DNA from: an uncultured Candidatus Peribacteria bacterium
Lineage (GTDB): Bacteria; Patescibacteriota; Gracilibacteria; UBA1369; UBA12463
Direction: 5' to 3'
NCBI GenBank assembly: GCA_964356305.1
Contig: CAYHGS010000002.1
Coordinates: 3,060-67,059 of the forward strand
Length of the DNA stretch: 64,000 bases
Below, in pieces: positions 2,685 to 44,917 of the stretch. Within the stretch, counting starts at the first letter, position 1, and every line of letters begins with the position of its first letter. The notes beneath the pieces were generated by a model. The model was not told the DNA's origin. It ran no database searches and saw only the letters and a program-made list of their open reading frames with translations. Made by a program: the position numbers and the translations under genes.

Positions 2685-4088
2685 CTACTTTTCTGGCAAC
2701 TCAAACTCCTGACCTGGAGACGGTACCTCGACATTTGTGAATCCGCTCTGACGAAGGAAACCTTCGAAATCGAGACCTTGGCCCTCTTCACCGTGTACGA
2801 GGAAGATTTTTTTCACCGGCTGTATATCGTTTAGTTTCTTCATATAATCGAGCAAATCTGAACGATCAGCATGGGCTGAAAAGGCATCCATTACAATGAT
2901 TTCCGCCTTCACATCGTAGGGATCGCCAAAAATATTTACCTTTTTCTCACCATCAAGAAGTTTTCGTCCAAGCGTATTTGCGGCCTGATATCCTACGAGA
3001 AGGACGGTATTATGAGAATTTTCGATATTATTTTTCAGGTGATGCAGGATACGTCCATGTTCACACATTCCGGATGATGAAATAATAATCATCGGACCGT
3101 TGAGCTCATTGAGATGCTTGGACTCCTCTACGCTTTTCGTATAAATAAGTCTCCCAAAACCAAACGGATTGTCTCCATTTTTGATAAATTCTTCGTTTGT
3201 CGCACTGTCAAAGCAGTCGAGATGTTTCTTGAAAACTTCCGTAACATTAACCGATAGCGGACTGTCCACATAAATCGGAAGTTCTGGAATTCTCTTTTCC
3301 TTCCAGAGAATATTAAGATAGTAGACAATTTCCTGCGTACGCTCGAGGGCAAAGGCGGGAATAATAATTCTTCCACCACGCTTGGCTGTTCTCGTAATAA
3401 TGTCCGCGAGATCCTGCTCTACCGTCTGAATGGCTGCGTGAAAACGATTTCCGTAGGTGGATTCTGACAAAAGATAGTCTGTTGCAGGAAGCATTTCCGG
3501 ATCAGGAAGCAGTGGAAGTCCTTTTCTACCCAAGTCGCCCGTGAATCCGAGTGTATATTTCTTTCCTGTTTCTTTGTCATCAATCTGAAGATATATCTGT
3601 GCTGAACCCAGAATATGTCCAGCATCATAAAATGTCAGGTTAACACCTTCCGAGATGTTGATTGTTTTTCTATAAGGTACGCCCTTAAAAAGTTTCTGAG
3701 TTTTCTCCGCATCTTCGACTGAGTAAAGTGGCGCTATACATGTCTTCCCTTTCTTCGCGAGATATTCTGCTTCTTTCTCCTGGATCATCGCGCTATCCAT
3801 GAGCATATATGATGCGAGATCCTGCGTGGCTCGAGTGGAGTAGATTGGTCCGCTGAATCCTCTTTTTACGACATATGGCAAGATTCCCGAGTGATCAATA
3901 TGGGCATGCGAAATAATAATCATGTCGAGCTCTTTCGGATCGAACATGAGTTTTTCATTTTTCTCACAGGACTCTTTTCGACTTCCCTGTGCCATACCGC
4001 AGTCGAGAAGAATCTTCTTTCCATTGATGGTGAGGAGATGTCTTGACCCTGTTACTTCACGTGCTGCTCCGCAGAATTTGATATGCAT
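2685..4088 (-). CDS. MBL-fold beta-CASP ribonuclease (CPSF73/RNase J-like RNA-metabolising hydrolase)
   Basis: Metallo-beta-lactamase motif SHAHIDHSG, downstream D/H motifs (YDAGHILGSA, ESTYG) and C-terminal SAHAD typical of the beta-CASP family. Confidence 0.85.
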   Translation of the reverse strand: MHIKFCGAAREVTGSRHLLTINGKKILLDCGMAQGSRKESCEKNEKLMFDPKELDMIIISHAHIDHSGILPYVVKRGFSGPIYSTRATQDLASYMLMDSAMIQEKEAEYLAKKGKTCIAPLYSVEDAEKTQKLFKGVPYRKTINISEGVNLTFYDAGHILGSAQIYLQIDDKETGKKYTLGFTGDLGRKGLPLLPDPEMLPATDYLLSESTYGNRFHAAIQTVEQDLADIITRTAKRGGRIIIPAFALERTQEIVYYLNILWKEKRIPELPIYVDSPLSVNVTEVFKKHLDCFDSATNEEFIKNGDNPFGFGRLIYTKSVEESKHLNELNGPMIIISSSGMCEHGRILHHLKNNIENSHNTVLLVGYQAANTLGRKLLDGEKKVNIFGDPYDVKAEIIVMDAFSAHADRSDLLDYMKKLNDIQPVKKIFLVHGEEGQGLDFEGFLRQSGFTNVEVPSPGQEFELPEK

Positions 4089-16455: not shown

Positions 16456-17775
16456 TTACATCATTCGTTTTCGTAATACTACAGCAAGCGAAGTAACTGC
16501 TACTATAAACATTCCAACGGGAACAGCAGTATTCCATGGAGTGCCTTCTTCATCTGGACCAATTCCCGACTTTGGAAGTTTTGGAGTAACTACCTCAGGT
16601 TCTGGAGCATAGACAATGGGTACTACTACTGCCACGGGTGTAGGTTTTACGGTTGGTACGGGGGTTGGCGTAGGTACCGGAGTGGATGGTAATGGTGCAC
16701 TCGTAACGGCTACTGTTGCATTCGCTGTAGCGGTTGCCGTAAGTCCATTTGCATCACCCGTTGCCGTAACGGTGTTTGTCGTTGTTACCGAAAGTGTGGT
16801 GGTACATCTGTACTTCCATGATTCACTTACATCAAGCTTCAAGTCTGTATTTGTATCGCCTGATACGAAGTTTACTACAGAGCACTTATCATCCGTAACT
16901 TTTACATTACTCATTGCGACTGTTCCGATGTTTGCTACTGTATAATTATATACTACTGATCCAGGTCCGGCCGTTAATGCCAAAGGGGTTGGAACTTTCG
17001 TAACGCTAATAAGTGGTGCTACAACCGGGGTAGGGGTAGGAGTAGGAGTTGGTACTGGAACCGGAACTGGAACCGGAGGAACAACGCATGTTGCCTTCGT
17101 AATAGTATTTGTATCCAATGTAACCGCTCCATTTCGGGCTAATACTCTACCGTCAACCGTAGCGCCCGTTGTGAGCGTGACCGATGCAGATGCTAAGATA
17201 TTTCCCTTGAGCGTGGAACTTGTTCCAAGCGTTGCGGAACTGCCGACTTGCCAAAAAACATTACAAGCCTGGGCGCTATTCGTAAGCACAACACTACTTG
17301 ATCCTGCTGTGATAAGCGTAGATGCTGTCTGAAAAACAAAGACAGCATTTGGATCGCCTTGACCATCAAGCGTTAATGTTCCCGTGATTCCAAATGTTCC
17401 GGATGCGGAGTTATATACTCCAGGAGTTTTTGTTGTTCCACCAAGCTCTGTACCGGTCGTGGTAGGTGCCTGTCCTGCTGCGGCATTGTAAGCTGTTGTA
17501 AGGTCGTTTTGAGCAGCAAGTGCTGCGCCATCAGCGACGTGCTGTGCTCCACTCACGGTACCAGGACCGAATCCTGTAACTGAAGCGCCCGGACTCAATC
17601 CAAGATCTCCGGTCACTACGGTCGCTCCGGTATTCGTAATTGTAGACCCGGCCAATACAGCAAAACCATCCGCTGTGCCAAGATTTACGGCTGTCGCCGC
17701 TATGGCCAATCCGCTCACGCCAAGCGTGAATACGGCAGTCAACATTGCCACTGAAATTCTATTACGTACATTCAT
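16456..17775 (-). CDS. cell-surface protein, DUF3494 (ice-binding-like) beta-solenoid plus Ig-like domain and sortase sorting signal
   Basis: Signal peptide, then LGTADGFAVLAGSTITNTGATVVTGDLGLSPGASVTGF, typical of the DUF3494 N-terminus. PVPVPVPTPTPTP linkers are present. The C-terminus has LPKSG followed by a hydrophobic helix and an RKRMM tail. Confidence 0.75.
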   Translation of the reverse strand: MNVRNRISVAMLTAVFTLGVSGLAIAATAVNLGTADGFAVLAGSTITNTGATVVTGDLGLSPGASVTGFGPGTVSGAQHVADGAALAAQNDLTTAYNAAAGQAPTTTGTELGGTTKTPGVYNSASGTFGITGTLTLDGQGDPNAVFVFQTASTLITAGSSSVVLTNSAQACNVFWQVGSSATLGTSSTLKGNILASASVTLTTGATVDGRVLARNGAVTLDTNTITKATCVVPPVPVPVPVPTPTPTPTPVVAPLISVTKVPTPLALTAGPGSVVYNYTVANIGTVAMSNVKVTDDKCSVVNFVSGDTNTDLKLDVSESWKYRCTTTLSVTTTNTVTATGDANGLTATATANATVAVTSAPLPSTPVPTPTPVPTVKPTPVAVVVPIVYAPEPEVVTPKLPKSGIGPDEEGTPWNTAVPVGMFIVAVTSLAVVLRKRMM

Positions 17776-36600: not shown

Positions 36601-37797
36601 ACGGAGATATTCGGTTACCTGCTTTGACATCTTTTGAAGTTCAAGAATTTTCGCTCGGAGTCGTGGTGCCACATGCTCATCCGGAAGTGCCATTCCGCCA
36701 ATAAAACCGTCGGCACCGGAACTCAAGAGCTGATTGAAGGCAGGATCACCAAGAATATTTCTCGCCTCGCCATGAAACATCGCCATCGTTGTTTTGCTTG
36801 GTACTTCTCCTGTTTTCTGTACCTGCTGGAATAATGTCTGCGCGCTTTTTATATATCCATTCGTGCGCCCGACGACATCCGTAACCGTACCTCGATATTC
36901 TCTTAGCTTTGGATCATTCGCAAATGTATCCATAAGAAGATCTTCTGTTTTTTGGGTATATTGCGCGAGTGCCATACTGAAACTCTCCTTCAGGTACAGA
37001 TGCCGAGCTAGTGCTATTTGCATGGCATTAGCTCCTTTTCCTTCATCGACACCAACCATCTGATACCCATTTGAAAGAGCATTGAGTCGGTCCAAAAATG
37101 CTTTTGCCTTTGTTTGTGTGGCAAGTGGATCTTTCGCGCTTGATGCCTGCAGCTCCTGAAACGTCGCGCTGAGTTCTCCAATTTTTCCAGATGCCCAATC
37201 CTGAAGCGGCTTGTCGTCGGGAGAAACATTCTCCGTATGCTCAACGACATCGAGTGTATTATTTAATAGATCGGACTCCGTTTGCTGATTCAATGTCTCA
37301 AAAGAAGCCTCATACTGCTTATCGCCAGTGATCCGGTAAAGCGTAGCGCGTAAATGCAATAATTCCTTTTGCCCCATTTGCTGTAGTGCTTCTACTTGCT
37401 GTGTCGACTCGGGAATAGGCATTTTTCCTACAATTTTTTTCAGTCCTCCATGGGCATCCTTATCGGCTTGGAGTACCGGGATTTCAATCGTCGCATTCTC
37501 TCCGAGCAATGACCGGAGAAGTGTTTTTCGCTCTTCTGCTCTTTTCGGATCCTTCGCAGCAAAACGATTCGTGATTTCAACCCACTTTTGAAGGGAGACG
37601 AGAAATTCCTGGTGCGACATCATGTATTTTTCTATATCAGCCTCATGTCCCTTGGTACTTTCTCCATTAGCCATAACGTGCGCGAGATATTCATCGATTG
37701 TCTTTCCTTCCTGCTGCGTTTTTGCCTGAATTTCCTCACCTATTTGGCTGATATTTGCGAACTCTGGATCATTAATAATTTCAAATATTGCGCGCAT
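33601..37797 (-). CDS. giant multidomain protein B (1398 aa): helical N-region, bilobed Gly/Ala-rich hydrophobic segment, Pro/Thr linker, HD domain, C-terminal H-Y-E ADP-ribosyltransferase-like region
   Basis: Uninterrupted 4.2 kb ORF with no signal peptide. See the domain sub-features. Confidence 0.85.
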   Translation of the reverse strand: MRAIFEIINDPEFANISQIGEEIQAKTQQEGKTIDEYLAHVMANGESTKGHEADIEKYMMSHQEFLVSLQKWVEITNRFAAKDPKRAEERKTLLRSLLGENATIEIPVLQADKDAHGGLKKIVGKMPIPESTQQVEALQQMGQKELLHLRATLYRITGDKQYEASFETLNQQTESDLLNNTLDVVEHTENVSPDDKPLQDWASGKIGELSATFQELQASSAKDPLATQTKAKAFLDRLNALSNGYQMVGVDEGKGANAMQIALARHLYLKESFSMALAQYTQKTEDLLMDTFANDPKLREYRGTVTDVVGRTNGYIKSAQTLFQQVQKTGEVPSKTTMAMFHGEARNILGDPAFNQLLSSGADGFIGGMALPDEHVAPRLRAKILELQKMSKQVTEYLRTVNVLTRQVIAMEGHGVGPGDFSKDAAKYLAITAAAVAGTAIATVLTGGLAAGPVAVLIATSLGAAIGSQLTTAAIEGNADALSPENMAKAWVQGAAASGGGAIAGKFIGMAGGRMAAAISNKIPGLSKKASSYMAQELERLAQQAAKNPALKEPKTLMQSLRHIAKEISKETGEEFTEDAMQKIGEGLAPNHPELGFLFTLIPSATKTGRATFKAEIGKNTPHASPTNIVPPDTTTPVDTTVSPDLTTPPIVTNEAAQEATSPVQANIEAPNIITPPTTEVVEVPVTIDMASQKEVSGQPKAAAEGEAPHDVFMQKIGKAFMDEGNTNLGIKSSPDSSLTYDGQTAQVAEHFRSKGFEVQSDSVTGRVIIKDGEFSFYVEPSFTRRTLLVLDAPDCTPEKLIDAMSANPKMKRLFDLDAGNSEKYTVGEHTAMVMRQFEKYFKDDALPPEFDRKMFRVLLLLHDVGKGIAVEQRGDNKAQHAYTLEQIDPILRSMDIGESQSRIIKSLISGDPFGQLLTGKIPPEQASILIGEMARKAQMPVDGFYKILKIFYQSDAASYTVDAGGKKSLDGLFKFDPESGKMDLIGDAAVKVSSLETVMDRRLEALSQKIDTLRSGIQQGNMNIEGFREFAKTPADLALLDFVEGKMSEDVFQAKLAADEHSFGTFASTGNSELSAFEKMSMFVRLERMLNQKMPDSDRARLTEVRQMLKDGRFGSDIYHGTSSVILRGLEKGGPELLSSKEIKNRSIGQRSGEGDIAGGTYLDDTIALGMGVDGAGTALAYAELNIEGDGYRNPLNYSQEELSAKIAVYQRTIADMKASGQDVIMNPYNTAKEVAGTSLQTLQRELSRLRQASRGKEVFPDLYDKSYPLVFGMKRDGLRIDESVAETRQYGKALSGEVSALETSISLVDNLDNVFVPSERIEEARAALAKVFAAHPEVMNKIRIYSIESLDSFSRIRAGILRQDSVFNDVRDSTFDALHKKQQQRFQHIENFTPTP
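33823..34464 (-). other. candidate diphtheria-toxin/PARP-like (H-Y-E) ADP-ribosyltransferase domain of protein B (aa ~1112-1325)
   Basis: SDIYHGTSSVILRGLEKGG resembles the [YW]HG[ST]x6-7IxxG motif of DT (SYHGTKPGYVDSIQKG) and exotoxin A (GYHGTFLEAAQSIVFGG). GGTYLDD...ALAYAE resembles GFYIAGDPALAYGYA. ALETSI...NVFVPS resembles RLETILGW...TVVIPS. Confidence 0.45.
34903..35325 (-). other. HD-domain phosphohydrolase module of protein B (aa ~825-965)
   Basis: YTVGEHTAMVMRQF ... FRVLLLLHDVGKG ... AQHAYT ... FYQSDAASY gives the H...HD...H...D pattern of the HD superfamily. Confidence 0.7.
36238..36525 (-). other. bilobed Gly/Ala-rich hydrophobic segment of protein B (aa ~425-520)
   Basis: YLAITAAAVAGTAIATVLTGGLAAGPVAVLIATSLGAAIGSQL, then WVQGAAASGGGAIAGKFIGMAGGRMAAAI. 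These are glycine-zipper-like helices. Confidence 0.6.
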
Positions 37798-37860
37798 ATC
37801 ATCTCGCGTTTCGAATGCATCCAGATCGCGCTGAATCTGTTCAACCGCTGTCTTGAGCCC

Positions 37861-38160
37861 TTATTCCGATATCTTGTCGATCGCAGTTAATGTATTGGCA
37901 TGTGCGCTTTGCAACTTTGCTAATTCCTTTTTTACATTCTCCTTGTGCTCAGCATCGAGTGGAGCTCGTTGAATTTTTGCATCAATATCGCTGACTTTTT
38001 TCTGTATATCTTCCTCGCGTACGACGTCTTTCTTGAGCTGCTTTTCCTTATCCCGAATGGTGTTCGTTAGTTGTTGTGTCTCCGCACTTCCTTCGAGAAA
38101 AATCATGCGTCGTGAATGCATATTATATTCAACCCGATGATGACAGTACATGTGTCTCAT
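37861..38160 (-). CDS. K/E-rich coiled-coil protein (99 aa), in frame with giant gene B across a single TAA
   Basis: ATGA overlap with the upstream gene. Its stop TAA (37863-37861) is followed by 21 sense codons (GLKTAVEQIQRDLDAFETRDD) and then the ATG of the giant ORF in the same frame. Confidence 0.55.
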   Translation of the reverse strand: MRHMYCHHRVEYNMHSRRMIFLEGSAETQQLTNTIRDKEKQLKKDVVREEDIQKKVSDIDAKIQRAPLDAEHKENVKKELAKLQSAHANTLTAIDKISE

Positions 38161-38516
38161 ATCGTATCGAGTTTTTTTAGAATATCTTCTGTATGCGACT
38201 TTTCTTGCGTCTCTTGTTCGCCCATTTGCGCCTTGAGACTTGATTTTATGCTCTCATCGAGCTCCTGCACAAACGTCTGATTTTCTTTACTGATAGATAT
38301 CTTCCTTGCTTCTTCGATGTTCTCCAGCCTCTCTTTTTCACTTGCGAAAATATGCGCGATCTCCTGAAGTGCCTTACTGTCCATCAATAAAACTGCCTGA
38401 AGATAGAGATACTTTTTCTCTTCAGAAAGTGTTTTTGAATTTCGTATATATTCCTGGATTTCTTTTTTCATTTTCATTTTGGTTTTTTTAGTTGCGACTG
38501 CTGACTCGATAGCCAT
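38157..38516 (-). CDS. small acidic helical protein (119 aa), paralog-like to 44591..44917
   Basis: TAATG overlap with the upstream gene. LSEEKKYLYLQAVLLMDSKALQEIAHIFASEKERL and the C-terminal EDILKKLD parallel ISPEMKEHLATKIATFTETQQQEMITAIQQSEEDL and ENLLKSLE. Confidence 0.55.
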   Translation of the reverse strand: MAIESAVATKKTKMKMKKEIQEYIRNSKTLSEEKKYLYLQAVLLMDSKALQEIAHIFASEKERLENIEEARKISISKENQTFVQELDESIKSSLKAQMGEQETQEKSHTEDILKKLDTI

Positions 38517-39067
38517 TATTCGACCAACTTCTCGAGTGCATGAAAGGCTGCTTCGTATTTGGCGACGATTTTTTCTCGTTCTTGAGGACTCACGCTATAA
38601 GGATCATCATTTCCATATGCATCAACTCCAAATGCTAGCTGCTGTATTTCCAACGGAAGCCTGCTGAAAATGCGTGAAGGCTTTGGGGAAAAACCATTAA
38701 TTGTTTTACCTTGAGGATCAATGACGAGCGTACGAAGTGCATACCCTTTCTCAATTTCATCCGCGGGTAAAACATTCCCGAAGTTTGAGAATGGAATAAT
38801 CGCAGGGCAATATGTATTTCCGGGACTAAAATGTCCCTTTAGCTTGCTATCCTGGCGTATATAGTCGAGGCGTCTCGCAAGGAGATCGCTCGTGAGTACA
38901 GCTTTACCCCCCAGGTACGTTCTGCAGAGGTTTCGATACTCCTGCAGTGACATAGGGTGTATTGATTCCGCCTCAGGCGTTCGCCCGAGTCCATCAACGA
39001 CAAATGCTTCAACTTGTTCTAGATACTTTGCTTCCATTTGATTTGCTCCTGAAGGGGTAGTGTTCAT
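38516..39067 (-). CDS. hypothetical protein (183 aa) downstream of giant protein A; intact copy of the duplicated module
   Basis: ORF 41 nt after the giant A stop. Contains HFSPGNTYCPAIIPFSNFGNVLPADEIEKGYALRTLV and C-terminal PQEREKIVAKYEAAFHALEKLVE, both repeated at 33019-33224. Confidence 0.6.
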   Translation of the reverse strand: MNTTPSGANQMEAKYLEQVEAFVVDGLGRTPEAESIHPMSLQEYRNLCRTYLGGKAVLTSDLLARRLDYIRQDSKLKGHFSPGNTYCPAIIPFSNFGNVLPADEIEKGYALRTLVIDPQGKTINGFSPKPSRIFSRLPLEIQQLAFGVDAYGNDDPYSVSPQEREKIVAKYEAAFHALEKLVE

Positions 39068-39108: not shown

Positions 39109-42100
39109 TTATTTCTTCTTGGAGCCCCCCGGTACTACGGTAGCTCTTTGCTCAATCATATCATTTGGATCGGCAATCTCCTCTCCGGTTGGCAATCTCT
39201 GTTCAGTCTTGAGAATGGTCGCGAATTGAATCGCGCGCTCTAACATGCCTTCTTTACCACCCGTGACGGGATCTGCGCATGCATTGATAAAATTTTCTAA
39301 TTTCCCATCTGCCTTCCATCCCGGACGATAACGGTTTAGGGCATTCCTCATCATTTTCGCATAGGCAAGCGTATCGATCGCACGACCAAGATGATTATTA
39401 ATTTCCAGATTCGTGAGTCCTCTTCTTCTGAGCTCAACGCCCGATTCCGTGATATCCATCTCCTCATAGCTATATCCTGGAGTTTTTGGCCACTGTCGTG
39501 ACTGCACGTCCTGAAACGGCAATGGTGAAATATCGATTACTTTTGCGACTCCATTCAGCATCAAAATATTCCCCTCTTTCACGTCTCCATGAAAATATCC
39601 ATGTCTCTGCAGCTCTTGGATTCCTCTTCCCGCATCAACAAGTGCTCCGAAGTACTTGCCGACACCCGGGCCGGCAAAACGCTCATATACTATATTTCTT
39701 GCATCGCTTGACGATTCAAAAATAATAAAATCCGGCTTGATGATGAGCGGTTTGATGATATTTGGATGGTTCATATCATTTATCATCTTCGCTCCTTCCA
39801 CCTCGGCGTCGAAATATTGCTCTTTCCCCACGTGCGATTGTTTGATTGCGGCAAAATGTAATTTCGTCTCACCATCTCTCACGAATGCCACATTTGAAAT
39901 CGATCCCATACCACCCGCGGCGATGAATTTACCACGGTAAAAGGTGATGTTTCTGCCCTGCGCGTCCGTAGTCATTTCTTTCTCGCCACGGAGAATGGCA
40001 TCATATACTTCCGTGCGTTTCAGCTCGGCGAGGTCATTTTTCTCTATGAGTTCATGTCCTTGCGGATCAATTTTTTTTACATCTATATGATTTTCGGCTT
40101 GTGTATTTTCGTGCGCCACCTCTTCAGGATGAGGAATACGAGTTGGTGGAGGCGCTGATACTTCTTTCCCCGCGCCATCATGCAAACATGTATCCCATGC
40201 GCGCACTGGAACGAACATCAGTCTATTCGCCAGATGATCACGTGCCTGCTCCTCGGACAACCCCCCATGTTCTTGCAGCTCCAAGACAGTAGCGGCTATT
40301 TTGTCGAGCCAAATTTTTGACTCCTGTCTATATTTTGCTCGTTCTTGCTGAATGAGAGCGTCTACCTTTTGCACGAAATCGCGATTCTGAAAAAGCTCGG
40401 TGTGAACTCCAGCTATATCCCGAAATATATCATCTCTGTTTTTGTTCCAGTAATCATATGCGCCATTTTCCTTTTCATGTAGGACAAACGCTATATCCTC
40501 GACTGACTTGTCGTGCGTTCGTAAAAAAGCCAGTATCTCATCCTTGAAGAATGTCTCTATATCACCTGCTTCTGTTCTCATATACTCTGTGATTTTTGTC
40601 ATATCTATTTGTCCGTTCTCGTCAACGATTTCAGTTTTTTTATATTTGTTATATGCCATCCTTCCCGGCTCCAAGTCATTAGAACCCTGTTTCAAAATAT
40701 GCTGAAGTTCATGTCTAACAGTAAAATTCTTTTCTGATAATTCAATGTCACCTCGTATAACAACCATACTTATTCCCATAGGAGTCTGTTGCGGCGTGAA
40801 CGCTTCTCCTTTCGGAAGGTGCGTGGGATGACGACTCGTTATATTGCCAAAATCTTCATTATTTTCACATCGTATTATTAATACCCCCTGCATCTCCCTA
40901 TATTCAATCCTTCCTTTCATGGGCGGAAGATTCATTTTTTCGGCAAGAAGCTCCCCCATTACCTGTTTCTCCATGACCTCTGCGTCAGTAACAGGACCTT
41001 TATATCTTTCCCCAGGGCTAACGCCAAGGCGTCTGCGTACTTCCAAATTTACCCTCAAAGTAACGGCATTTGTTTCATGCTTTAGTTTTAATATATGCGC
41101 GACTGTCGCCAGCGCCATTTTCTTTTGTGGAAGAGTAAGCTGTGATTTTTCAATTGCGCTCCACGCCTCATCAAAATCCGGAACCACTCCGAAATCCGTC
41201 TCACCACTAATGAACGCTATTATTTCCGTCAGGCTTTTTTGATTTTCCGCGGAATGCTCAACGACCGGTTCTTTCATCCCTTCCAGTGCGCTTAATCTAG
41301 CCTCTGCATCGCTCATTTTCGCCAATTCCCCCTCGTGGGCTTTCTGAGAACGCTCCTGGAGCTGCTGCAATTGCGGATCGATTTTCCCGTCTTTCATCAA
41401 ATTACCAAGTGCTTTTTCTTTTGGAACAATGGCAACTTCAGGCGCGGGTATTGACTCATCTTGGGTTATTCTTTTTGGCACGAGCGGTGTTTCATCTTGG
41501 ATCGCTGTTCTCTTAACTCTTACCTGTCTCGTTGGCTCAACTACTCCTTCCGGTTCTGCTTTTTTACTTGTTTCCACTACTTCGCCCACAAGCTTATCAG
41601 AAGTACCTACCGGAATGTTCATCTCTTTTTCCTGACCCTTTTTCACTCCTTCTTCCATTATCTTTTTTCCTGCATCGTGCATCACTCCTGTCATTGGACT
41701 GACTAATTTTGCACCAATACGCAGCATAATAATGTCGCCCGCGCTTTCAATAAATGAGTTATCGCTTGTAGCGCTGAAGATGGCCGCTTCAGTAGCAAGT
41801 TGGCCGGACCAGTCTAGGCCCTTACGAATTGTTCTTCCGGTGATTTTGCCCAGACTCTCCTCGACAACGTTATCAGAGGCTTTTTTCATAGAGGCCCTGA
41901 CCGTTAGTTCACCTGATTTGTCGGCTCCCTGGCGAAGCAGTTTTTCCGTAGTTCCCGCCGTGACGAGCGCTTCCTCTGCGGTGATGCCGCTAGCTTTGCT
42001 TACGACTGACCAACCTTTGTTACCGATGCTAATTGAGCCGAACATCAGCATGCTCTGACCGATACCTTTTGCCAGCTCTGTAGGCATGAATAATCCTTCC

Positions 42101-44574
42101 TCGTGCAATGCCACTGTACGAAGTGCCCTGTTCGCCAACTCAAATCCGGTAGATTCCGTGACAAATCCTGCTGCGCCCAGCGCTAGTCCCGATCTAATAC
42201 CATTTGCGATCATATAGGCACGTACGCTGGCAGCAGCGAGTGAGCCAACACCGCCTGAGATAGCCATAATTACACCATTGATAAATACCTGTTCCGCAAT
42301 CTTTTCAGCCTCCTTGTCCGAGATTATGTACCACTTATCATTCACATCCATCATCGACTCATACTCGCCCCAGGCCTTCTTACTACCTTTCTCTAACTCA
42401 CCCTTGTCATTAGCGACCTCCATGCCATGCATTACGGCCTTATTCATCTTCTCCTCTACTCCCTCGGACATTGCTTCATCTACAAGGGCCTTCAAATCTG
42501 TAGCCGAAATCTCTAAGGGTTTTTGCTGCTCCGGTGGACGTTTTGCGTTAAACTCTTCAATTTGGCCCCACATTTTCGTTCTAATTGTTGTCTCATACGT
42601 GGATCGTTTTTTTTCATTTTCATTTATAATCTTTGTTCGCATCTGCTCTTTCTGTGCCGTACTTATACTTCCTCGAACTCTATCAATATCCTCCTTCATC
42701 GCCGCCTCAAAATACCCCGATGCCATATCCGGCTGCCCTAGCGCCCGGAGGGATCGCGCCGCGCTAAGATATTCATCCTGAATCTTGCCCTTGTCGCTTT
42801 CTATTCCCGTCGAAAATTCCGCATATACGACACTATTCCAGGCATCCATTACCTTGTCACTGTTATCTTTTTCCTGCATCGAAGGCGCGCGCCCATCAGG
42901 CCCCACGATTGGTGTCGCGGAAATAGCCTGCTCTTTTCTCTGCACCAGAGACGCCCCCTGTGCCCTAGCCTCTATCGTACCCGCTTCAATCTGCTGAAGT
43001 TGGAACGCGAGATTCGCTTTATTTTTTGTAACAAAATTATACAAAAATCTTTCATTAGCATGATCCTTGAATAATGCCTCATATCGCTTTGAATCTGATA
43101 ATTGGTCATTTATTTTTTGAAGTCTCTTGATGCTGGCAATATTGAATATCTTTATCTGATCTTTCGCAAACACAATCATATCTTTCGTTTCAGGTCGGTC
43201 CTGCTGCCTGGAAACCTCATCCAGAAATTGATTGAATCGGAATCTCGCCCCAGGTAAATCTCCATTTTGCAACGCTTCTCTTCCTAGGTGAAAATGCTTT
43301 GACACCGGGTCTTCCGTTTTTTCCGTAGCCTCAATCATTGAAGCTTTTAATAGGGAATCTTGTGCGATTTTTATTCCGTTTTTTTTCTGTTCAATCGTGA
43401 GGTTTTCGAAATCTGCTAGAAATTTTGGAGTAAATGAAACCTTGCCGTCTTTGCTCATTACATTGCCGCTGAGCGCCTCTATTGCTCTTTTTGAAGCAAT
43501 GGGAGTCTTGTCCATGAGTGTCGCAATTTCTATCTTTGCCTTCAAGGCGTTTGCCTCTTCCACAAGAGCTTTTGCCTGCGCCTCTGTTTCTACGCTTTTC
43601 CCTTCTCTTTTTGGTGTAACGCAACGAGTCATTCCTTCTTCGCAGTGTGAAAATTTCATTTTGAACTCATGAATTGCCTGCCTCAATACTGCGGCTTTTA
43701 CCCACCCTTCAGATACCCCCATTTCTTTCAGCTCAGCTCTCGTGGCATCCGTACACGCGGCTGTCATCACGATACGAACTCCCTTTTCGGGATTTATTTC
43801 GACTATAGCGGCGAGATCTACTATCTCTTTTTCATTCCCCTTGTCGGTGGTTTGCACTAAATCCGACGGAAGCCCCACTGCGCTTTTCTCGCTGTATATA
43901 TTTGATCCTTGTACCATGTAGCCAACCCTGAATCCTTCCTGCTGTTCGAATTTGCGCTCTTCGTTAGCCTGATCGACAAAACCCTGCGCCATACGAAGGA
44001 GTTCGTTTATCTTTTCCGAGTCTCCGAGTGTATTTTTTACTTCTTGATACTTCTTGCTCTCAAGGTAGTTAGCTGTCTCAATTGGCGAAGCTGTTTCGGT
44101 CGCGACCATATGCTTCGATTGATATTCACTCGTCAGATTCTGCGCCTCTTGGAATTTTCCACTTTTCTCCAGGCCTCTTCGTTTTTCCATATACGTGTTG
44201 AAATCCGTGAGATCATTCTTGAATTTTGTGATCTTAACTTCTTCCGCGCTAAATGGAACGAATTCCTTTTCTATATCCTTTAGCTTTTGATCGAGCTTGA
44301 CCGTTAACGCATCTATATTTTTCTCGTCAATTTCGCGGAGAATCGCAAATGTGTCCGAAAAAGCCTTGCTCTTTGATTCCTTGAATTTTGGTGAATCCAA
44401 GACAGCTTGCTCTTTTATGCCAAAATTTGACTTCAGTTTTTCCTCAATTGTATCAACCTTCTTGATAACGATTTCGGCATAGTCCTTGCCTTTTACCATG
44501 ACTTTTTTATCGATTTTTTTGTCGATTTTATCAAGCCTCGTTTGTTCTGTATTTATTTGTTCTCCTTCAGCCAT
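39109..44574 (-). CDS. giant multidomain protein A (1821 aa): coiled-coil N-region, hydrophobic Gly-rich segment, HExxH metallopeptidase-like region, C-terminal protein kinase-like domain
   Basis: Uninterrupted 5.5 kb ORF with no signal peptide. See the domain sub-features. Confidence 0.85.
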   Translation of the reverse strand: MAEGEQINTEQTRLDKIDKKIDKKVMVKGKDYAEIVIKKVDTIEEKLKSNFGIKEQAVLDSPKFKESKSKAFSDTFAILREIDEKNIDALTVKLDQKLKDIEKEFVPFSAEEVKITKFKNDLTDFNTYMEKRRGLEKSGKFQEAQNLTSEYQSKHMVATETASPIETANYLESKKYQEVKNTLGDSEKINELLRMAQGFVDQANEERKFEQQEGFRVGYMVQGSNIYSEKSAVGLPSDLVQTTDKGNEKEIVDLAAIVEINPEKGVRIVMTAACTDATRAELKEMGVSEGWVKAAVLRQAIHEFKMKFSHCEEGMTRCVTPKREGKSVETEAQAKALVEEANALKAKIEIATLMDKTPIASKRAIEALSGNVMSKDGKVSFTPKFLADFENLTIEQKKNGIKIAQDSLLKASMIEATEKTEDPVSKHFHLGREALQNGDLPGARFRFNQFLDEVSRQQDRPETKDMIVFAKDQIKIFNIASIKRLQKINDQLSDSKRYEALFKDHANERFLYNFVTKNKANLAFQLQQIEAGTIEARAQGASLVQRKEQAISATPIVGPDGRAPSMQEKDNSDKVMDAWNSVVYAEFSTGIESDKGKIQDEYLSAARSLRALGQPDMASGYFEAAMKEDIDRVRGSISTAQKEQMRTKIINENEKKRSTYETTIRTKMWGQIEEFNAKRPPEQQKPLEISATDLKALVDEAMSEGVEEKMNKAVMHGMEVANDKGELEKGSKKAWGEYESMMDVNDKWYIISDKEAEKIAEQVFINGVIMAISGGVGSLAAASVRAYMIANGIRSGLALGAAGFVTESTGFELANRALRTVALHEEGLFMPTELAKGIGQSMLMFGSISIGNKGWSVVSKASGITAEEALVTAGTTEKLLRQGADKSGELTVRASMKKASDNVVEESLGKITGRTIRKGLDWSGQLATEAAIFSATSDNSFIESAGDIIMLRIGAKLVSPMTGVMHDAGKKIMEEGVKKGQEKEMNIPVGTSDKLVGEVVETSKKAEPEGVVEPTRQVRVKRTAIQDETPLVPKRITQDESIPAPEVAIVPKEKALGNLMKDGKIDPQLQQLQERSQKAHEGELAKMSDAEARLSALEGMKEPVVEHSAENQKSLTEIIAFISGETDFGVVPDFDEAWSAIEKSQLTLPQKKMALATVAHILKLKHETNAVTLRVNLEVRRRLGVSPGERYKGPVTDAEVMEKQVMGELLAEKMNLPPMKGRIEYREMQGVLIIRCENNEDFGNITSRHPTHLPKGEAFTPQQTPMGISMVVIRGDIELSEKNFTVRHELQHILKQGSNDLEPGRMAYNKYKKTEIVDENGQIDMTKITEYMRTEAGDIETFFKDEILAFLRTHDKSVEDIAFVLHEKENGAYDYWNKNRDDIFRDIAGVHTELFQNRDFVQKVDALIQQERAKYRQESKIWLDKIAATVLELQEHGGLSEEQARDHLANRLMFVPVRAWDTCLHDGAGKEVSAPPPTRIPHPEEVAHENTQAENHIDVKKIDPQGHELIEKNDLAELKRTEVYDAILRGEKEMTTDAQGRNITFYRGKFIAAGGMGSISNVAFVRDGETKLHFAAIKQSHVGKEQYFDAEVEGAKMINDMNHPNIIKPLIIKPDFIIFESSSDARNIVYERFAGPGVGKYFGALVDAGRGIQELQRHGYFHGDVKEGNILMLNGVAKVIDISPLPFQDVQSRQWPKTPGYSYEEMDITESGVELRRRGLTNLEINNHLGRAIDTLAYAKMMRNALNRYRPGWKADGKLENFINACADPVTGGKEGMLERAIQFATILKTEQRLPTGEEIADPNDMIEQRATVVPGGSKKK
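39340..39942 (-). other. protein kinase-like domain of protein A (aa ~1545-1745)
   Basis: Gly-loop IAAGGMGSISNV, VAIK-like HFAAIKQ (K1578), HPNIIKPL, catalytic loop HGDVKEGNIL (D1664, N1669), and KVIDIS in place of DFG. The HGDxxxxN form recalls RIO/Bud32/Kdo-type and effector kinases. Confidence 0.65.
40375..40902 (-). other. HExxH zincin-like region of protein A (aa ~1225-1400)
   Basis: MGISMVVIRGDIELSEKNFTVRHELQHILKQG, with HELQH at 40699-40713. The third metal ligand was not identified. Confidence 0.4.
41995..42288 (-). other. hydrophobic Gly-rich segment of protein A (aa ~763-860)
   Basis: VFINGVIMAISGGVGSLAAASVRAYMIANGIRSGLALGAAGFV ... GIGQSMLMFGSISIG. Confidence 0.55.
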
Positions 44575-44590: not shown

Positions 44591-44917
44591 TTATTTTGTA
44601 TCATTCTCCTCAAGACTTTTGAGTAAATTTTCCTCAGCCTGCGTCTCATTAACCTCGGATACTCCCTCAATTTCTTTTATATATATTTTCCACACCTCAT
44701 CCAGCTTCCTCTGTACTCGTAGAAGTTTTTCTTCATCATCTTTCAGGGCATCGTTTAAAAGCTGCTTCAAGTCTTCTTCTGACTGTTGAATTGCCGTTAT
44801 CATTTCCTGCTGCTGGGTTTCGGTAAATGTGGCAATTTTTGTAGCAAGGTGCTCCTTCATTTCCGGGGATATGAGAAGACTTTTTTGGATGAGTTGAGAG
44901 AGTGAATTTTCAGGCAT
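44591..44917 (-). CDS. small acidic helical protein (108 aa), first gene of the giant-protein operon
   Basis: ORF 16 nt upstream of giant gene A. Paralog-like to 38157..38516. Confidence 0.55.
   Translation of the reverse strand: MPENSLSQLIQKSLLISPEMKEHLATKIATFTETQQQEMITAIQQSEEDLKQLLNDALKDDEEKLLRVQRKLDEVWKIYIKEIEGVSEVNETQAEENLLKSLEENDTK

Follow-up and report, generated by a model that had tools for sequence, protein, structure and literature searches.

Two questions are raised by a giant protein encoded in the stretch of 64,000 nucleotides analyzed here (the window), whose C-terminus an earlier note had described as a eukaryotic-like or atypical protein kinase occupying the position of a toxin: to which class of kinases does this domain belong, and what might the protein and its neighboring genes do with it?

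All of the kinase motifs named in that note (the Gly-loop, HFAAIKQ, EVEGAKMIN, HPNIIKPL, HGDVKEGN, and VIDIS) were found in the order given, on the minus strand and within a single open reading frame, here called giant A (Table 1); the plus-strand translation of the flagged span was rich in stops. The span of the kinase as first drawn marks a real kinase but falls short of the full conserved module. The tail of ~80 residues that had been placed after the kinase proved to be mostly the helical end of the C-lobe, with only the last ~20–25 residues being of low confidence.

Table 1 Positions in the window of the features of the giant A locus and of the adjacent paralogous module.
Feature	Position (nt)	Strand	Residues	Remarks
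up108	44591–44917	minus	108 aa	Acidic, helical-looking sequence; 16 nt upstream of giant A
Giant A	39109–44574	minus	1821 aa	Single ORF; contains all kinase motifs
Central hydrophobic Gly-rich segment	42160–42300	minus	759–805	IAEQVFINGVIMAISGGVGSLAAASVRAYMIANGIRSGLALGAAGFV; Kyte-Doolittle scan
Domain preceding the kinase	40105–41277	minus	~1100–1490	Motifs RHELQHIxKQGSN and FKDExLAFL; HELQH at 40699–40713
Complete kinase cassette	39142–40083	minus	1498–1811 (~310 aa)	Family alignments and AlphaFold2 model
N-terminal extension of cassette			1498–1530 (~35 aa)	Helical, family-specific; consensus LxRLKxRDPxGY
Bilobal Hanks-type kinase core			~1532–1791	
Gly-loop to helix alphaF	39340–39942	minus	1545–1745	Span flagged in the earlier note
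Gly-loop AAGGMGSISNV	39904–39915 (G1554–G1557)	minus	G1554, G1555, G1557	
beta3 Lys	39841–39843	minus	K1578	In HFAAIKQ
alphaC Glu	39802–39804	minus	E1591	In EVEGAKMIN
Catalytic loop HGDVKEGN	39568–39591	minus	H1662–N1669	
Metal-binding Asp	39532–39534	minus	D1681	In VIDIS
P+1 loop Thr	39481–39483	minus	T1698	In T-P-G-Y
alphaF Asp	39373–39375	minus	D1734	
p183	38516–39067	minus	183 aa	Cytoplasmic-type; 41 nt downstream of the kinase
Second paralogous module	33199–38516	minus		Inserted relative to loci L001 and L002
o119	38157–38516	minus		up108-family small protein; 41% identity to s108 of locus L010
o99	37861–38160	minus		Front part of the interrupted giant B gene
Giant B	33601–37797	minus		With o99 one gene of 1519 codons; single in-frame TAA between them
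o127	33199–33582	minus		Downstream protein differing from p183
Remnant of second p183 copy	32997–33224	minus	p183 ~74–121	HFSPGNTYCPAIIPFSNFGNVL...; far edge of the inserted module

An exhaustive search yielded about 46 relatives of the kinase, with 31 members entering the profile and alignment and 34 sequences an independent MAFFT run. Mean column identity among the relatives was about 25%. Among the 31 members, G1554, E1620, H1662, D1664, K1666, N1669, and D1681 were nevertheless invariant, and K1578, E1591, T1698, and D1734 were conserved in at least 90%, in agreement with the MAFFT alignment; G1555 was conserved in 29 of the 34 sequences and G1557 in 32. The conservation among homologs of the catalytic Lys, Asp, and Asn, on which the earlier claim depended, was thereby borne out. 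The family also departs from the canonical pattern. The Arg of the catalytic loop is replaced by Gly, giving an HGD sequence and a non-RD kinase. At the DFG position, Ile takes the place of Phe, and the Gly has become Ile in giant A and Asn in most relatives, next to the invariant D1681. Ser stands in for the third Gly of the Gly-loop, the APE Glu position varies, and the poorly aligned C-terminal helices showed no conserved Arg corresponding to that of subdomain XI. The family carries a C-terminal motif, DPxxxGxPxM.

The structure model of the cassette obtained with AlphaFold2 (pLDDT of 92.1, pTM of 0.87) contained a 16-residue activation segment, helix alphaEF, a long helix alphaF, and at least two more helices. 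A Foldseek search of the PDB with this model returned 1900 matches at E ≤ 1e-3; the top matches listed were all protein kinases (EphA3, FGFR1, TTK, EGFR, and WNK3, with E values of ~1e-8 and TM scores of 0.45–0.63), and only kinases were present among the matches listed for a viral library. Identity to solved kinases in the Foldseek alignments was about 13–20%.

Sequence comparison placed the domain in the same class. The isolated domain of giant A gave 20.3 bits (E of 4e-4) against Pfam Pkinase and did not reach the gathering cut-off of 31.7; its single-sequence database matches were weak and were all to protein kinases (TAO3 in the PDB, E of 0.014). The profile of the 31 family members matched about 1981 kinase sequences of the PDB at E ≤ 0.01, led by CAMK-type and TTK eukaryotic-type protein kinases (ePKs). 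Its best match was the CDPK 3is5 (E of 1.8e-17), and the TTK matches spanned positions 74–292 of the profile. The fold match that the earlier note had set beforehand as a test is thus strong by profile, model, and structure search alike. Pkinase was matched by all 31 members and was the top family for each of them (best E of 1.7e-14). No NCBIfam model was found for the family, which lies below the Pfam threshold and was previously unannotated; this description holds under a conservative reading as well.

The note had suggested an affinity to RIO, Bud32, and Kdo kinases or to effectors of the OspG/NleH type, and an atypical small kinase of this kind would be in keeping with the HGD non-RD loop and with a faint match of RIO1 to giant A (E of 0.22 over 29 residues). 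RIO1 (PF01163) and Kdo (PF06293), however, each matched only one of the 31 family members, against 31 of 31 for Pkinase, and the profile's best PDB matches were to ePKs. The loop has the form D-x-K-x-x-N, with the Lys two positions past the Asp, a signature of Ser/Thr ePKs. RIO, Bud32, and NleH/OspG kinases are not known to have an activation segment with T-P-G-Y, the alphaF Asp, and extra helices in the C-lobe, all of which are present here, and the C-lobe is not truncated. Given the D-x-K-x-x-N loop, the full activation segment with T-P-G-Y, the alphaF Asp, and the Pkinase match in every member, the domain is therefore Hanks-type and not atypical. Of the two labels originally offered, eukaryotic-like was apt and atypical was not, and we consider assignment to the RIO, Bud32, Kdo, or NleH/OspG type, already disfavored, to be barely credible. 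The C-terminus of giant A is confirmed as a genuine, although very divergent, Hanks-type (ePK) Ser/Thr protein kinase of the PF00069 kind. The D-x-K-x-x-N loop together with the T-P-x-Y P+1 loop indicates specificity for Ser/Thr.

From its conserved catalytic residues, the giant A kinase is predicted to be catalytically competent. The replacement of DFG by I-D-I (I-D-N in most relatives), the lack of conservation of the APE Glu, and the Ser at the third Gly of the Gly-loop would also suit a pseudokinase, or a kinase fold adapted to another chemistry or role (scaffold, AMPylase, or glutamylase). In a pseudokinase or a repurposed kinase fold, one or more of the phosphotransfer residues are normally lost or rearranged, whereas the Gly-loop, K1578, E1591, D1664, K1666, N1669, and D1681 are all invariant or at least 90% conserved despite the low column identity, and we regard this alternative as very improbable. 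Because of the altered DFG sequence and the variable APE Glu, the predicted activity calls for experimental proof, for which K1578, D1664, N1669, and D1681 are residues ready for mutagenesis.

From the N- to the C-terminus, giant A consists of a conserved domain of ~100 residues, a long hydrophilic region that is divergent in sequence, a central hydrophobic hairpin rich in Gly, a domain containing HExxH, and the kinase cassette. It has no Sec-type signal peptide. Compared with the syntenic giants of loci L001 and L002, identity was 37% at residues 1–100, 15–30% across residues 100–1000 (below 25% over most of this stretch), and 32–76% per 100-residue bin across residues 1000–1800, with the C-terminal ~800 residues showing about 55–57%. 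The flanking housekeeping genes were mostly 82–96% identical to those of the same loci. The Kyte-Doolittle maximum of giant A (1.75) was located at residues 762–786, and the segment around it probably forms a hairpin or anchor in the membrane; a comparable hydrophobic segment in mid-protein was apparent in approximately half of the large relatives. The domain preceding the kinase is the best-conserved stretch (76% identity to L001/L002 at residues 1201–1300), and RHELQHIxKQGSN was invariant in four sequences. Faint matches to peptidase families with HExxH (PhageMetallopep, 0.057; eCIS_core, 0.041; Peptidase_M78, 0.072) make it a candidate zinc-metallopeptidase-like domain; a PDB sequence search with this domain gave no meaningful match.

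The relatives of the kinase recovered in a genome scan were found in CPR genomes (Peregrinibacteria/Peribacteria and Altimarinota). In 31 of 32 representatives of at least 900 residues, the cassette lies at the C-terminal end, and in 36 of the 46 family representatives the alignment starts at giant A residues 1496–1503, defining a sharp boundary at residue ~1498. The regions preceding this boundary in kinase-bearing giants are mostly unrelated to one another. Conversely, the same N-terminal ~700 residues occur both in kinase-bearing giants (g1164 of L010, and L003) and in giants with a different cargo (giant B, and g1752 of L010), and one relative in Altimarinota combines an intact GGEEF diguanylate cyclase and the kinase in one protein. 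The kinase behaves as a swappable C-terminal end-module, showing the domain exchange by which polymorphic toxin and effector systems are recognized. The proposal that it occupies the position of a toxin held up: the sharply bounded C-terminal cassette follows differing N-terminal parts and is itself followed by a cargo-specific partner gene.

Giant B, in the adjacent module, illustrates this exchange. Its residues 4–700 were 35–38% identical to the N-terminal parts of L010 g1164, which carries the kinase, and g1752, which does not, and the C-terminal halves of the three proteins were unrelated. It has a hydrophobic segment of 51 residues (425–475), and its cargo gave only weak HD matches (Pfam HD, E of 0.03; PADLOC Cas3-HD, E of 0.0024). 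The in-frame TAA that interrupts the gene is TCA in a second assembly (L020), a nonsense polymorphism. At the far edge of the module, the p183 profile matched an ORF at 33000–33236 with an E value of 9e-20.

Two small genes accompany the giants. The up108 protein was 74–79% identical to its L001 and L002 counterparts over the full 104-residue alignment, and transitive BLAST linked it to o119, s108 of L010, and the proteins 122 of L016, s114 of L008, 116 of L006, and 119 of L018, with a common C-terminal LLKxLD-like motif. A member of this family (~105–120 residues) precedes every giant examined for which upstream sequence was available, whatever its cargo, and up108 has no family in Pfam, NCBIfam, or PADLOC. 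A homolog of p183, by contrast, lies directly 3′ of the kinase giant at 10 of the 11 distinct loci for which the downstream sequence was available (this locus, L001, L002, L003, L006, L007–9, L010–12/L016, L013, L015, and L018), being missing only at the distant kinase locus L005. It was not found after non-kinase giants, which are followed instead by the unrelated o127 and p211. The p183 protein has no signal peptide, and none of its 17 database homologs carries a Pfam domain. Its AlphaFold2 model (pLDDT of 89.5, pTM of 0.85) had no structural neighbor in the PDB by Foldseek (best E of 2.2, TM ≤ 0.21), and a PDB sequence search with p183 gave no match. Between close relatives, p183 was 75–78% identical, compared with ~60% for the kinase. 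We consider p183 the cargo-specific partner of the kinase, with a candidate role as an immunity protein or inhibitor, a chaperone, or a substrate. The up108 family, the giant, and the cargo-type partner form a conserved three-gene module, so far in CPR genomes only.

The module is surrounded by housekeeping genes (MiaA, RecJ, DHH, YebC, malic enzyme, TsaD, and HisS) in flanks nearly identical to those of Peregrinibacteria/Peribacteria MAGs; the locus is chromosomal and syntenic, without an obvious mobile element. No genes for a secretion apparatus were present in or beside the module, and Pfam, NCBIfam, and PADLOC revealed no known secretion or trafficking domain in the N-terminal regions of the giants or in the small partners. 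A search of PADLOC-DB 2.0 gave no match for giant A, p183, up108, o119, or o127, the weak Cas3-HD match of giant B being the only one. These results bear on a role in anti-phage or abortive-infection defense, in which the giants would be sensors with swappable effectors (kinase, HD, GGDEF) acting in the infected producer and p183 a regulator or antitoxin. Swappable effector domains, fast evolution, tandem paralogs, and the Cas3-HD-like match would fit such a role, and Ser/Thr kinases occur in some defense systems. The absence of PADLOC families for five of the proteins, the housekeeping neighborhood with no other defense genes adjoining, and the combination of long coiled hydrophilic N-terminal regions with a small helical upstream partner, which to our knowledge is not a feature of described defense systems, all argue against it, and we judge it unlikely.

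Several features of the locus point to evolution of the conflict type: giant A diverges far faster than its flanks, the modules are tandem paralogs, a p183 fragment is orphaned, and a stop segregates in giant B. Such divergence, shuffling, and tandem copies are typical of conflict systems rather than of core regulators. The best explanation, to which we give about an even chance, is that the locus is a polymorphic effector module, in which a giant modular protein of a CPR bacterium (Peregrinibacteria) bears a competent kinase as cargo together with a cargo-specific partner. The N-terminal domain and the small upstream protein would serve export or assembly, and the hydrophobic hairpin would anchor the giant in, or insert it into, a membrane at the interface of episymbiont and host. 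The kinase, a candidate host-manipulating effector, would phosphorylate Ser/Thr residues of target-cell proteins, probably of a bacterial host or competitor, with the ATP of the target, and p183 might bind the kinase inside the producer, acting there either as an inhibitor or immunity protein or as a chaperone specific for this cargo. Export, target, catalytic activity, and the role of p183 are all inferred in this explanation. Counting against it are the lack of a secretion or trafficking domain or apparatus and of a signal peptide, the housekeeping neighbors, and the absence of a mobile element. A hairpin anchor without a signal peptide would keep both ends of the protein in the cytoplasm of the producer; p183 is more conserved than the kinase, which is untypical of rapidly coevolving immunity proteins; kinase and GGDEF are also classic self-signaling domains; and the L005 kinase locus has no p183.

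Much of this would be accommodated by cell-autonomous signaling, a serious rival that we regard as possible. Giant A would then be a membrane-anchored scaffold facing the cytoplasm of the CPR cell, for example at an attachment or division site, with the kinase acting on the cell's own proteins, p183 serving as substrate, activator, or regulator, and up108 as a structural partner. Hanks kinases are common bacterial regulators, and the hairpin-type segment without a signal peptide, the syntenic chromosomal context among housekeeping genes, the GGDEF cyclase, a typical self-signaling domain, alongside the kinase in Altimarinota relatives, and the good conservation of p183 all suit this role. It is at odds with the extreme divergence relative to the flanking genes, with a sharply bounded cassette that has been shuffled among unrelated N-terminal regions, with alternative cargo on the same N-terminal region, each with its own downstream gene, and with the tandem paralogs, orphan partner fragment, and segregating premature stop.

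The lineage of Peribacteria and Peregrinibacteria clusters with Absconditabacteria; among the latter is Vampirococcus, an epibiotic predator with many giant proteins in its membrane proteome (PMC8080830). CPR bacteria are thought to be symbionts, and the cultured Saccharibacteria and Vampirococcus have documented bacterial hosts (PMC8080830). Recognition, attachment, and host manipulation by the ultra-small CPR/Patescibacteria episymbionts are largely obscure and few candidate effectors are available; the locus supplies concrete ones, on a giant-protein scaffold that in a related phylum also bears a GGDEF cyclase. Carried further, and tentatively, a polymorphic effector module of three genes may constitute a previously unrecognized effector-delivery system, composed of a small helical adaptor, a giant with an export domain and a membrane-inserting hairpin, and a cargo-specific partner. 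With it, episymbionts of the Peregrinibacteria/Gracilibacteria type might deliver signaling enzymes (a Hanks Ser/Thr kinase, a diguanylate cyclase, and perhaps also an HD hydrolase) to bacterial hosts and thereby reprogram the physiology of those hosts. In such a system p183, which has no solved structural neighbor, could be a natural kinase inhibitor of new fold that guards the producer. If the kinase does act on a bacterial host, it would be a Hanks-type kinase serving as an interbacterial effector; a targeted literature search found no such case, and we know of none described.

Comparison with known systems places the kinase itself closest to Hanks-type kinases, both bacterial (PknB/PrkC) and eukaryotic (CAMK/TTK), with which it shares the bilobal fold, the Gly-loop, the beta3 Lys, the alphaC Glu, H-x-D-x-K-x-x-N, the metal-binding Asp, T-P-x-Y, and the alphaF Asp. 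It differs from the usual members in its HGD non-RD loop, in I-D-I/N in place of DFG, in the unconserved APE Glu, and in the helical N-terminal extension and C-terminal DPxxxGxPxM of its family. In PknB-type receptor kinases, the kinase domain is N-terminal, whereas that of giant A is C-terminal, past the membrane segment. Giant A may also be likened to the translocated effector kinases YpkA/YopO of Yersinia, LegK1–4 of Legionella, SteC of Salmonella, OspG of Shigella, and NleH of E. coli, in which an ePK-like module of a larger protein acts on proteins of another cell, as proposed here for giant A, and which have likewise diverged rapidly from cellular kinases. Those effectors are delivered into eukaryotic cells by a T3SS or T4SS; giant A is linked to no such apparatus and belongs to a CPR organism. 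As described in the literature, NleH and OspG are minimal kinases of ~200 residues without an activation segment, which the giant A domain possesses.

The giants also resemble the T3SS translocators SseC/IpaB and chlamydial Inc proteins in having a long N-terminal part that is coiled and hydrophilic, a central bilobed hydrophobic segment rich in Gly, and a small acidic helical protein encoded upstream. Giant B matched SseC (PF04888) in the hydrophobic region only (E of 0.0048, 17 bits against a cut-off of 30.2), giant A did not match this profile, and the giant B match is probably compositional. Unlike these proteins, the giants are several times larger, carry enzymatic cargo, and are linked to no T3SS genes; we know of no T3SS in CPR bacteria.

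In contrast to polymorphic toxins (CdiA-CT/CdiI, Rhs, and especially T7SS LXG proteins with upstream Lap partners and downstream immunity genes), the giants lack LXG, Rhs, PAAR, and TPS domains, any other known trafficking domain, and nearby secretion genes, and they contain a central hydrophobic hairpin. As cargo they carry a Hanks kinase, or in other cases GGDEF or perhaps HD, instead of the usual nucleases, deaminases, and pore-formers, and neutralization of the kinase by p183 is a candidate role, as distinct from the immunity known in those systems. Common to both are a conserved N-terminal region with C-terminal cassettes exchanged at an abrupt boundary, a small helical upstream protein tied to the N-terminal region, a downstream gene tied to the cargo, tandem modules, and orphan partner fragments.

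The C-terminal domain of giant A, the kinase-bearing giant protein, can be assigned to the Hanks-type protein kinases with very high confidence. The segment that the earlier note had flagged as a eukaryotic-like or atypical kinase lies in the minus-strand reading frame of this protein, and translation of the plus strand over the same span revealed no open reading, with stops throughout. All six kinase motifs quoted in that note were found in the order claimed, and the residue numbers given for K1578 and D1664 were right; the Asp of the VIDIS sequence is D1681.

Coordinates of features in the window
Feature	Position	Strand	Remark
up108	44591-44917	minus	upstream of giant A
Giant A ORF	39109-44574	minus	1821 aa
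HExxH domain of giant A	40105-41277 (aa ~1100-1490; HELQH 40699-40713)	minus	best-conserved part outside kinase
Flagged kinase span	39340-39942	minus	aa 1545-1745 of giant A; HGDVKEGN at 39568-39591
p183	38516-39067	minus	directly downstream of giant A kinase
o99	37861-38160	minus	ORF before giant B
Giant B	33601-37797	minus	second giant protein of window
Giant B cargo	33601-35700	minus	C-terminal half
Second p183 copy (fragment)	32997-33224	minus	far edge of insertion
Putative SLH surface protein	27610-29076	plus	488 aa
Putative ice-binding-like surface protein	16456-17775	minus	439 aa
PAS-domain sensor histidine kinase	11186-14017	plus	943 aa
Beta-CASP/MBL ribonuclease	2685-4088	minus	467 aa

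Taken alone, the giant A kinase sequence scored below threshold with the Pfam Pkinase profile (20.3 bits, E = 4e-4, vs a gathering score of 31.7), reached 18.4 bits with PK_Tyr_Ser-Thr, and matched RIO1 at E = 0.22 over 29 residues only. A phmmer search of the PDB with the same sequence gave weak matches, every one of them to a protein kinase (TAO3, E = 0.014), with alignments that started at the Gly-loop and reached the DFG position. A word-indexed protein search returned zero matches for either the kinase domain alone or the 31-sequence family alignment, whereas an exhaustive search with HMMER, covering 1.84 billion cluster representatives, yielded 86 matches, 41 of them at E ≤ 1e-10. Given that the latter search recovered a 60%-identical relative as its top match and about 45 family members, a negative result from an indexed search does not signify absence for such proteins.

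The homologous regions of 30 relatives were aligned with the query (alignment A1), and mean column identity was only 25%. G1554, E1620, H1662, D1664, K1666, N1669, and D1681 were invariant in this alignment, and K1578 (β3 Lys), E1591 (αC Glu), T1698 (P+1 loop T-P-x-Y), and D1734 (αF Asp) were conserved in at least 90% of sequences; a second, independent alignment of 34 sequences gave the same conservation. The catalytic Lys, Asp, and Asn on which the kinase claim had depended are thus clearly maintained among homologs. The A1 profile matched about 1981 distinct kinase sequences in the PDB at E ≤ 0.01, led by the CDPK 3is5 (1.8e-17), twitchin, DAPK1, and TTK, with TTK alignments covering both lobes (profile positions 74 to 292). 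All 31 members of A1 matched Pfam Pkinase (best E = 1.7e-14), and RIO1 and Kdo were matched by one member each. An AlphaFold2 model obtained with A1 as input had a pLDDT of 92.1 and a pTM of 0.87, with all five models at 90.7 or higher. The Foldseek comparison proposed in the earlier note gave 1900 PDB matches for this model at E ≤ 1e-3, and the top 50 listed were protein kinases throughout (EphA3, FGFR1, TTK, EGFR, and WNK3 among them; TM 0.45–0.63, 12–20% identity); only kinases were present among the matches listed from a viral structure library. The match to the kinase fold is therefore strong by both profile and structure. A shared architecture with giant-protein kinases of the twitchin/titin type was also considered and set aside, with the PDB resemblance being read as generic CAMK-like similarity.

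The catalytic loop of giant A, H-G-D-V-K-E-G-N, contains a Lys two residues past the catalytic Asp as well as the Asn. The sequence D-x-K-x-x-N (Hanks subdomain VIb) is a signature of Ser/Thr-specific eukaryotic protein kinases. Sixteen residues separate D1681 from T1698, in a segment with K-T-P-G-Y at its end, which corresponds to G-T-P-E-Y of PKA. Both the alignment and the AlphaFold2 model place a long αF helix with the conserved Asp, and then at least two further helices, after the activation segment. RIO, Bud32, Kdo, and minimal NleH/OspG kinases are not known to possess such an activation segment and such C-lobe features. On these features, the "atypical" label, together with the affinity to RIO/Bud32/Kdo or NleH/OspG kinases that had been suggested from the HGDxxxxN form, is not supported; a kinase of the RIO/NleH type is disfavored, and the domain is a divergent Hanks-type kinase.

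Several features set the family apart. The DFG position reads I-D-I in giant A, and the majority of relatives have I-D-N there; the Glu of the APE motif lacks conservation, a family-specific helical extension of ~35 amino acids (consensus LxRLKxRDPxGY, pLDDT >93) precedes the N-lobe, and a DPxxxGxPxM motif is present at the C-terminus. Given that all phosphotransfer residues are kept despite such divergence, a pseudokinase is disfavored, and the domain is predicted to be catalytically active. With HGD in place of HRD, it is a non-RD kinase, and its activity would for this reason probably not require activation-loop phosphorylation. The domain represents a family that is new, unannotated, and deeply divergent within a well-known fold; it lies under the Pfam threshold and is without an NCBIfam model.

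With a six-sequence alignment, a scan of GTDB species, each represented by one genome, and also of metagenomes yielded six genome loci and 3 metagenome loci, and the named genome loci were all in CPR MAGs. Two of these, L001 and L002, are in Candidatus Peregrinibacteria/Peribacteria MAGs (kinase identity 60–62%), and the others are in two more Peregrinibacteria/Peribacteria (34–38%), a Candidatus Altimarinota MAG (32%), and an unclassified "bacterium" (28%). Peregrinibacteria cluster together with Gracilibacteria and Absconditabacteria (PMC8080830). The window is syntenic with L001 and L002, which derive from lake-water Peregrinibacteria; protein identity in the flanks was mostly 82–96% (MiaA, RecJ, a DHH/DHHA1 protein, YebC, malic enzyme), and that of a 443-amino acid flanking protein was 73–87%. 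The source of the window is therefore closely related to these two Peregrinibacteria. An independent ENA assembly, L019, showed no difference from the window across the ~480 nt compared, and its gene order and gene lengths were the same. Lake metagenomes in which the locus is present are ENA ERZ4201064 and ERZ4201065.

Elsewhere in the window, the beta-CASP/MBL ribonuclease matched the NCBIfam model for type VII CRISPR-associated Cas14 at E = 1.6e-130 but with 436 bits vs a cut-off of 800, and an aCPSF1-type RNase at E = 1e-91; its probable role is that of a housekeeping RNase J/CPSF-like enzyme. One putative surface protein has a domain that resembles ice-binding proteins (94.8 bits vs a cut-off of 400). 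Another has SLH (S-layer homology) repeats, three in number (E = 1.2e-28), in keeping with an envelope that bears an S-layer. Given the PAS-domain histidine kinase, the reduced genome retains at least one conventional two-component sensor.

The distribution of the kinase cassette was determined from the 46 best in-family representatives, corresponding to matches 1 to 47 of the exhaustive search (to E = 3.5e-8) minus P0044, whose best stretch reached only E = 0.009. Thirty-two of the 46 are at least 900 amino acids long, and the kinase is located at the extreme C-terminus in 31 of these 32, so that the C-terminal ("toxin") position described for giant A is kept among its large relatives. In 36 of the 46 representatives, the aligned part starts at giant A residues 1496 to 1503, indicative of a sharp junction. 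Outside the cassette, clear full-length kinship to giant A was limited to P0001, P0002, and P0004, with faint mid-region matches in two others. P0023 (1831 amino acids), the sole large member with a best match that is not C-terminal, contains two kinase cassettes (residues ~440–665 and ~1477–1637). In P0010, P0020, and other members of 420–520 amino acids, an N-terminal motif (such as ...HRLIFFADLP...) is followed by the cassette within ~100 amino acids; unless they are assembly fragments, these proteins would represent a minimal architecture of N-domain and cargo.

Direct BLAST comparison of giant A with giant B revealed no similarity, their relationship being visible only via intermediate relatives. 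The first ~700 amino acids of giant B are 35–38% identical to the N-terminal parts of both giants of L010, one of which (1164 amino acids, P0003) ends in the kinase and the other (1752 amino acids) in other cargo, and giant B is 38% identical over 626 amino acids to the kinase-bearing giant of L003. These comparisons indicate that one N-terminal scaffold carries alternative cargo and that at least two types of scaffold bear the kinase. The cargo of giant B contains an H...HD motif (GEHTAMV...LLLLHDVGK, residues ~821–869) and gave weak matches to Pfam HD (E = 0.03) and to the PADLOC Cas3 HD domain (E = 0.0024); it had no PDB match and, when scanned alone, no Pfam match, and is a candidate HD hydrolase or nuclease. 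The Altimarinota-type giant (2678 amino acids; L008 1944–9980, and also L006, L007, and L009) has a GGDEF domain upstream of the kinase (residues 1532–1643 in L008, E = 3e-17) with the GGEEF motif intact. Further downstream, contigs of this type contain additional sets of a small and a large ORF, an NYN-domain gene, and a T4SS_pilin gene.

Giant A has no signal peptide. Its N-terminus (MAEGEQINTEQTRLDKIDKK...) resembles that of many relatives, with M-[AP]-E-... followed ~40 amino acids in by an [FY]xxxVD motif; a second N-terminal class (...EKRLIFF...P...) is found in other relatives, including the o99/giant B gene. Compared with the L001 and L002 giants, which are 82% identical to each other, giant A shows 37% identity over residues 1–100, 25% or less in most 100-residue bins between 100 and 1000, where identity rises slightly at the hydrophobic segment, and 32% to 76% per bin between 1000 and 1800. 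The hydrophobic segment is Gly-rich and spans residues 759–805 in giant A; in giant B it comprises 51 residues (425–475), the length of a two-helix hairpin, and a similar segment occurs midway along roughly half of the large relatives. Recognizable enzymatic domains are situated C-terminal to the main hydrophobic segment in both giant A and the L008 giant. The HExxH domain of giant A, with the invariant pattern RHELQHIxKQGSN...FKDExLAFL, has faint Pfam matches to the HExxH metallopeptidase families PhageMetallopep, eCIS_core/DUF4157, and M78, and no meaningful match to PDB sequences; it may constitute a second enzymatic cargo.

The genes between 44917 and 33199 share one direction and lie close together, the successive gaps being 16, 41, −1, −4, 63 (in-frame), and 18 nt. 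Profile searches of all fetched loci detected a p183 homolog directly 3' of the kinase giant in the window, L001, L002, L003, L006, L007–9, L010–12/L016, L013, L015, and L018, with the distant L005 the only kinase locus searched in which it was missing. The identity to p183 was 75–78% in L001/L002, 37% in L003, and 28% in the Altimarinota locus. No p183 homolog was found after non-kinase giants, with giant B and the 1752-amino acid L010 giant being followed by the unrelated o127 and a 211-amino acid protein, respectively; the presence of p183 therefore follows the cargo rather than the scaffold. None of its 17 database homologs has a Pfam domain. Given that its model (pLDDT 89.5, pTM 0.85) had no structural neighbor in the PDB (best Foldseek E = 2.2, TM ≤ 0.21) and its sequence no PDB match, a function cannot be assigned by homology. 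The up108 family (~105–120 amino acids, acidic and helical-looking, with a C-terminal LLKxLD-like motif) has a member ahead of every giant examined for which upstream sequence was available, whatever the cargo, and therefore tracks the scaffold. We consider it probable that the kinase is an exchangeable cargo module served by a dedicated partner. Scans of every protein in the module with PADLOC and NCBIfam gave negative results, and a role as a defense system, to which the PADLOC scan lends no support, appears improbable.

Several features of the locus are signs of genetic conflict. Relative to L001 and L002, the window contains an insertion of ~5.5 kb that holds the second module (o119, o99 and giant B, and o127), and L010/L016 also have two modules in tandem at an equivalent site beside YebC. 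The second p183 copy (residues ~74–121, E = 9e-20) has the appearance of a scar left by recombination or of a remnant of an orphan partner. The o99 and giant B frames constitute one 1519-codon gene with a single in-frame TAA (37861–37863). At this site, L020 (ENA ERZ4201065), another assembly of the same population, reads TCA (Ser) with the frame open, and L019 agrees with the window; the stop is premature and segregating, and it deprives giant B of its N-terminal domain.

We propose that the locus encodes an effector-type module. The N-terminal domain and the small helical protein would mediate export or assembly, the hydrophobic hairpin would anchor or insert the protein in the membrane at the symbiont-host contact, the kinase would phosphorylate Ser/Thr residues of target-cell proteins, and p183 would serve either as an inhibitor or immunity protein of the producer or as a cargo-specific chaperone. 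For this chain as a whole, we judge the chances to be evenly balanced. The main rival, a cell-autonomous, membrane-anchored signaling scaffold, would fit the housekeeping gene context, the signaling-type nature of the kinase and GGDEF domains, and the finding of neither a signal peptide nor a secretion apparatus, but it accounts less well for cassette shuffling, a cargo-specific partner, tandem paralogs, and extreme divergence, and we regard it as rather unlikely. The locus offers specific, testable candidates for the action of CPR episymbionts on their hosts. The three-gene module occurs only in CPR genomes among loci with an organism name, and no description of the family or module was found in the literature on Peregrinibacteria, Patescibacteria, or CPR kinases, giant proteins, or interbacterial kinase toxins.

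In T7SS LXG toxins, Lap helper proteins are encoded upstream and immunity proteins downstream, and these toxins are the closest formal analogy known to us for the giant A module. Neither a trafficking domain, LXG or other, nor a secretion gene was detectable in the module or neighboring genes. As in polymorphic toxin and effector loci, the shared N-terminal part here goes with a partner encoded upstream, and the variable cargo with one encoded downstream. The three-gene module thus resembles polymorphic toxin systems in logic, but it is without any of their recognizable trafficking parts, and a Hanks kinase and a diguanylate cyclase are unusual cargo among them.
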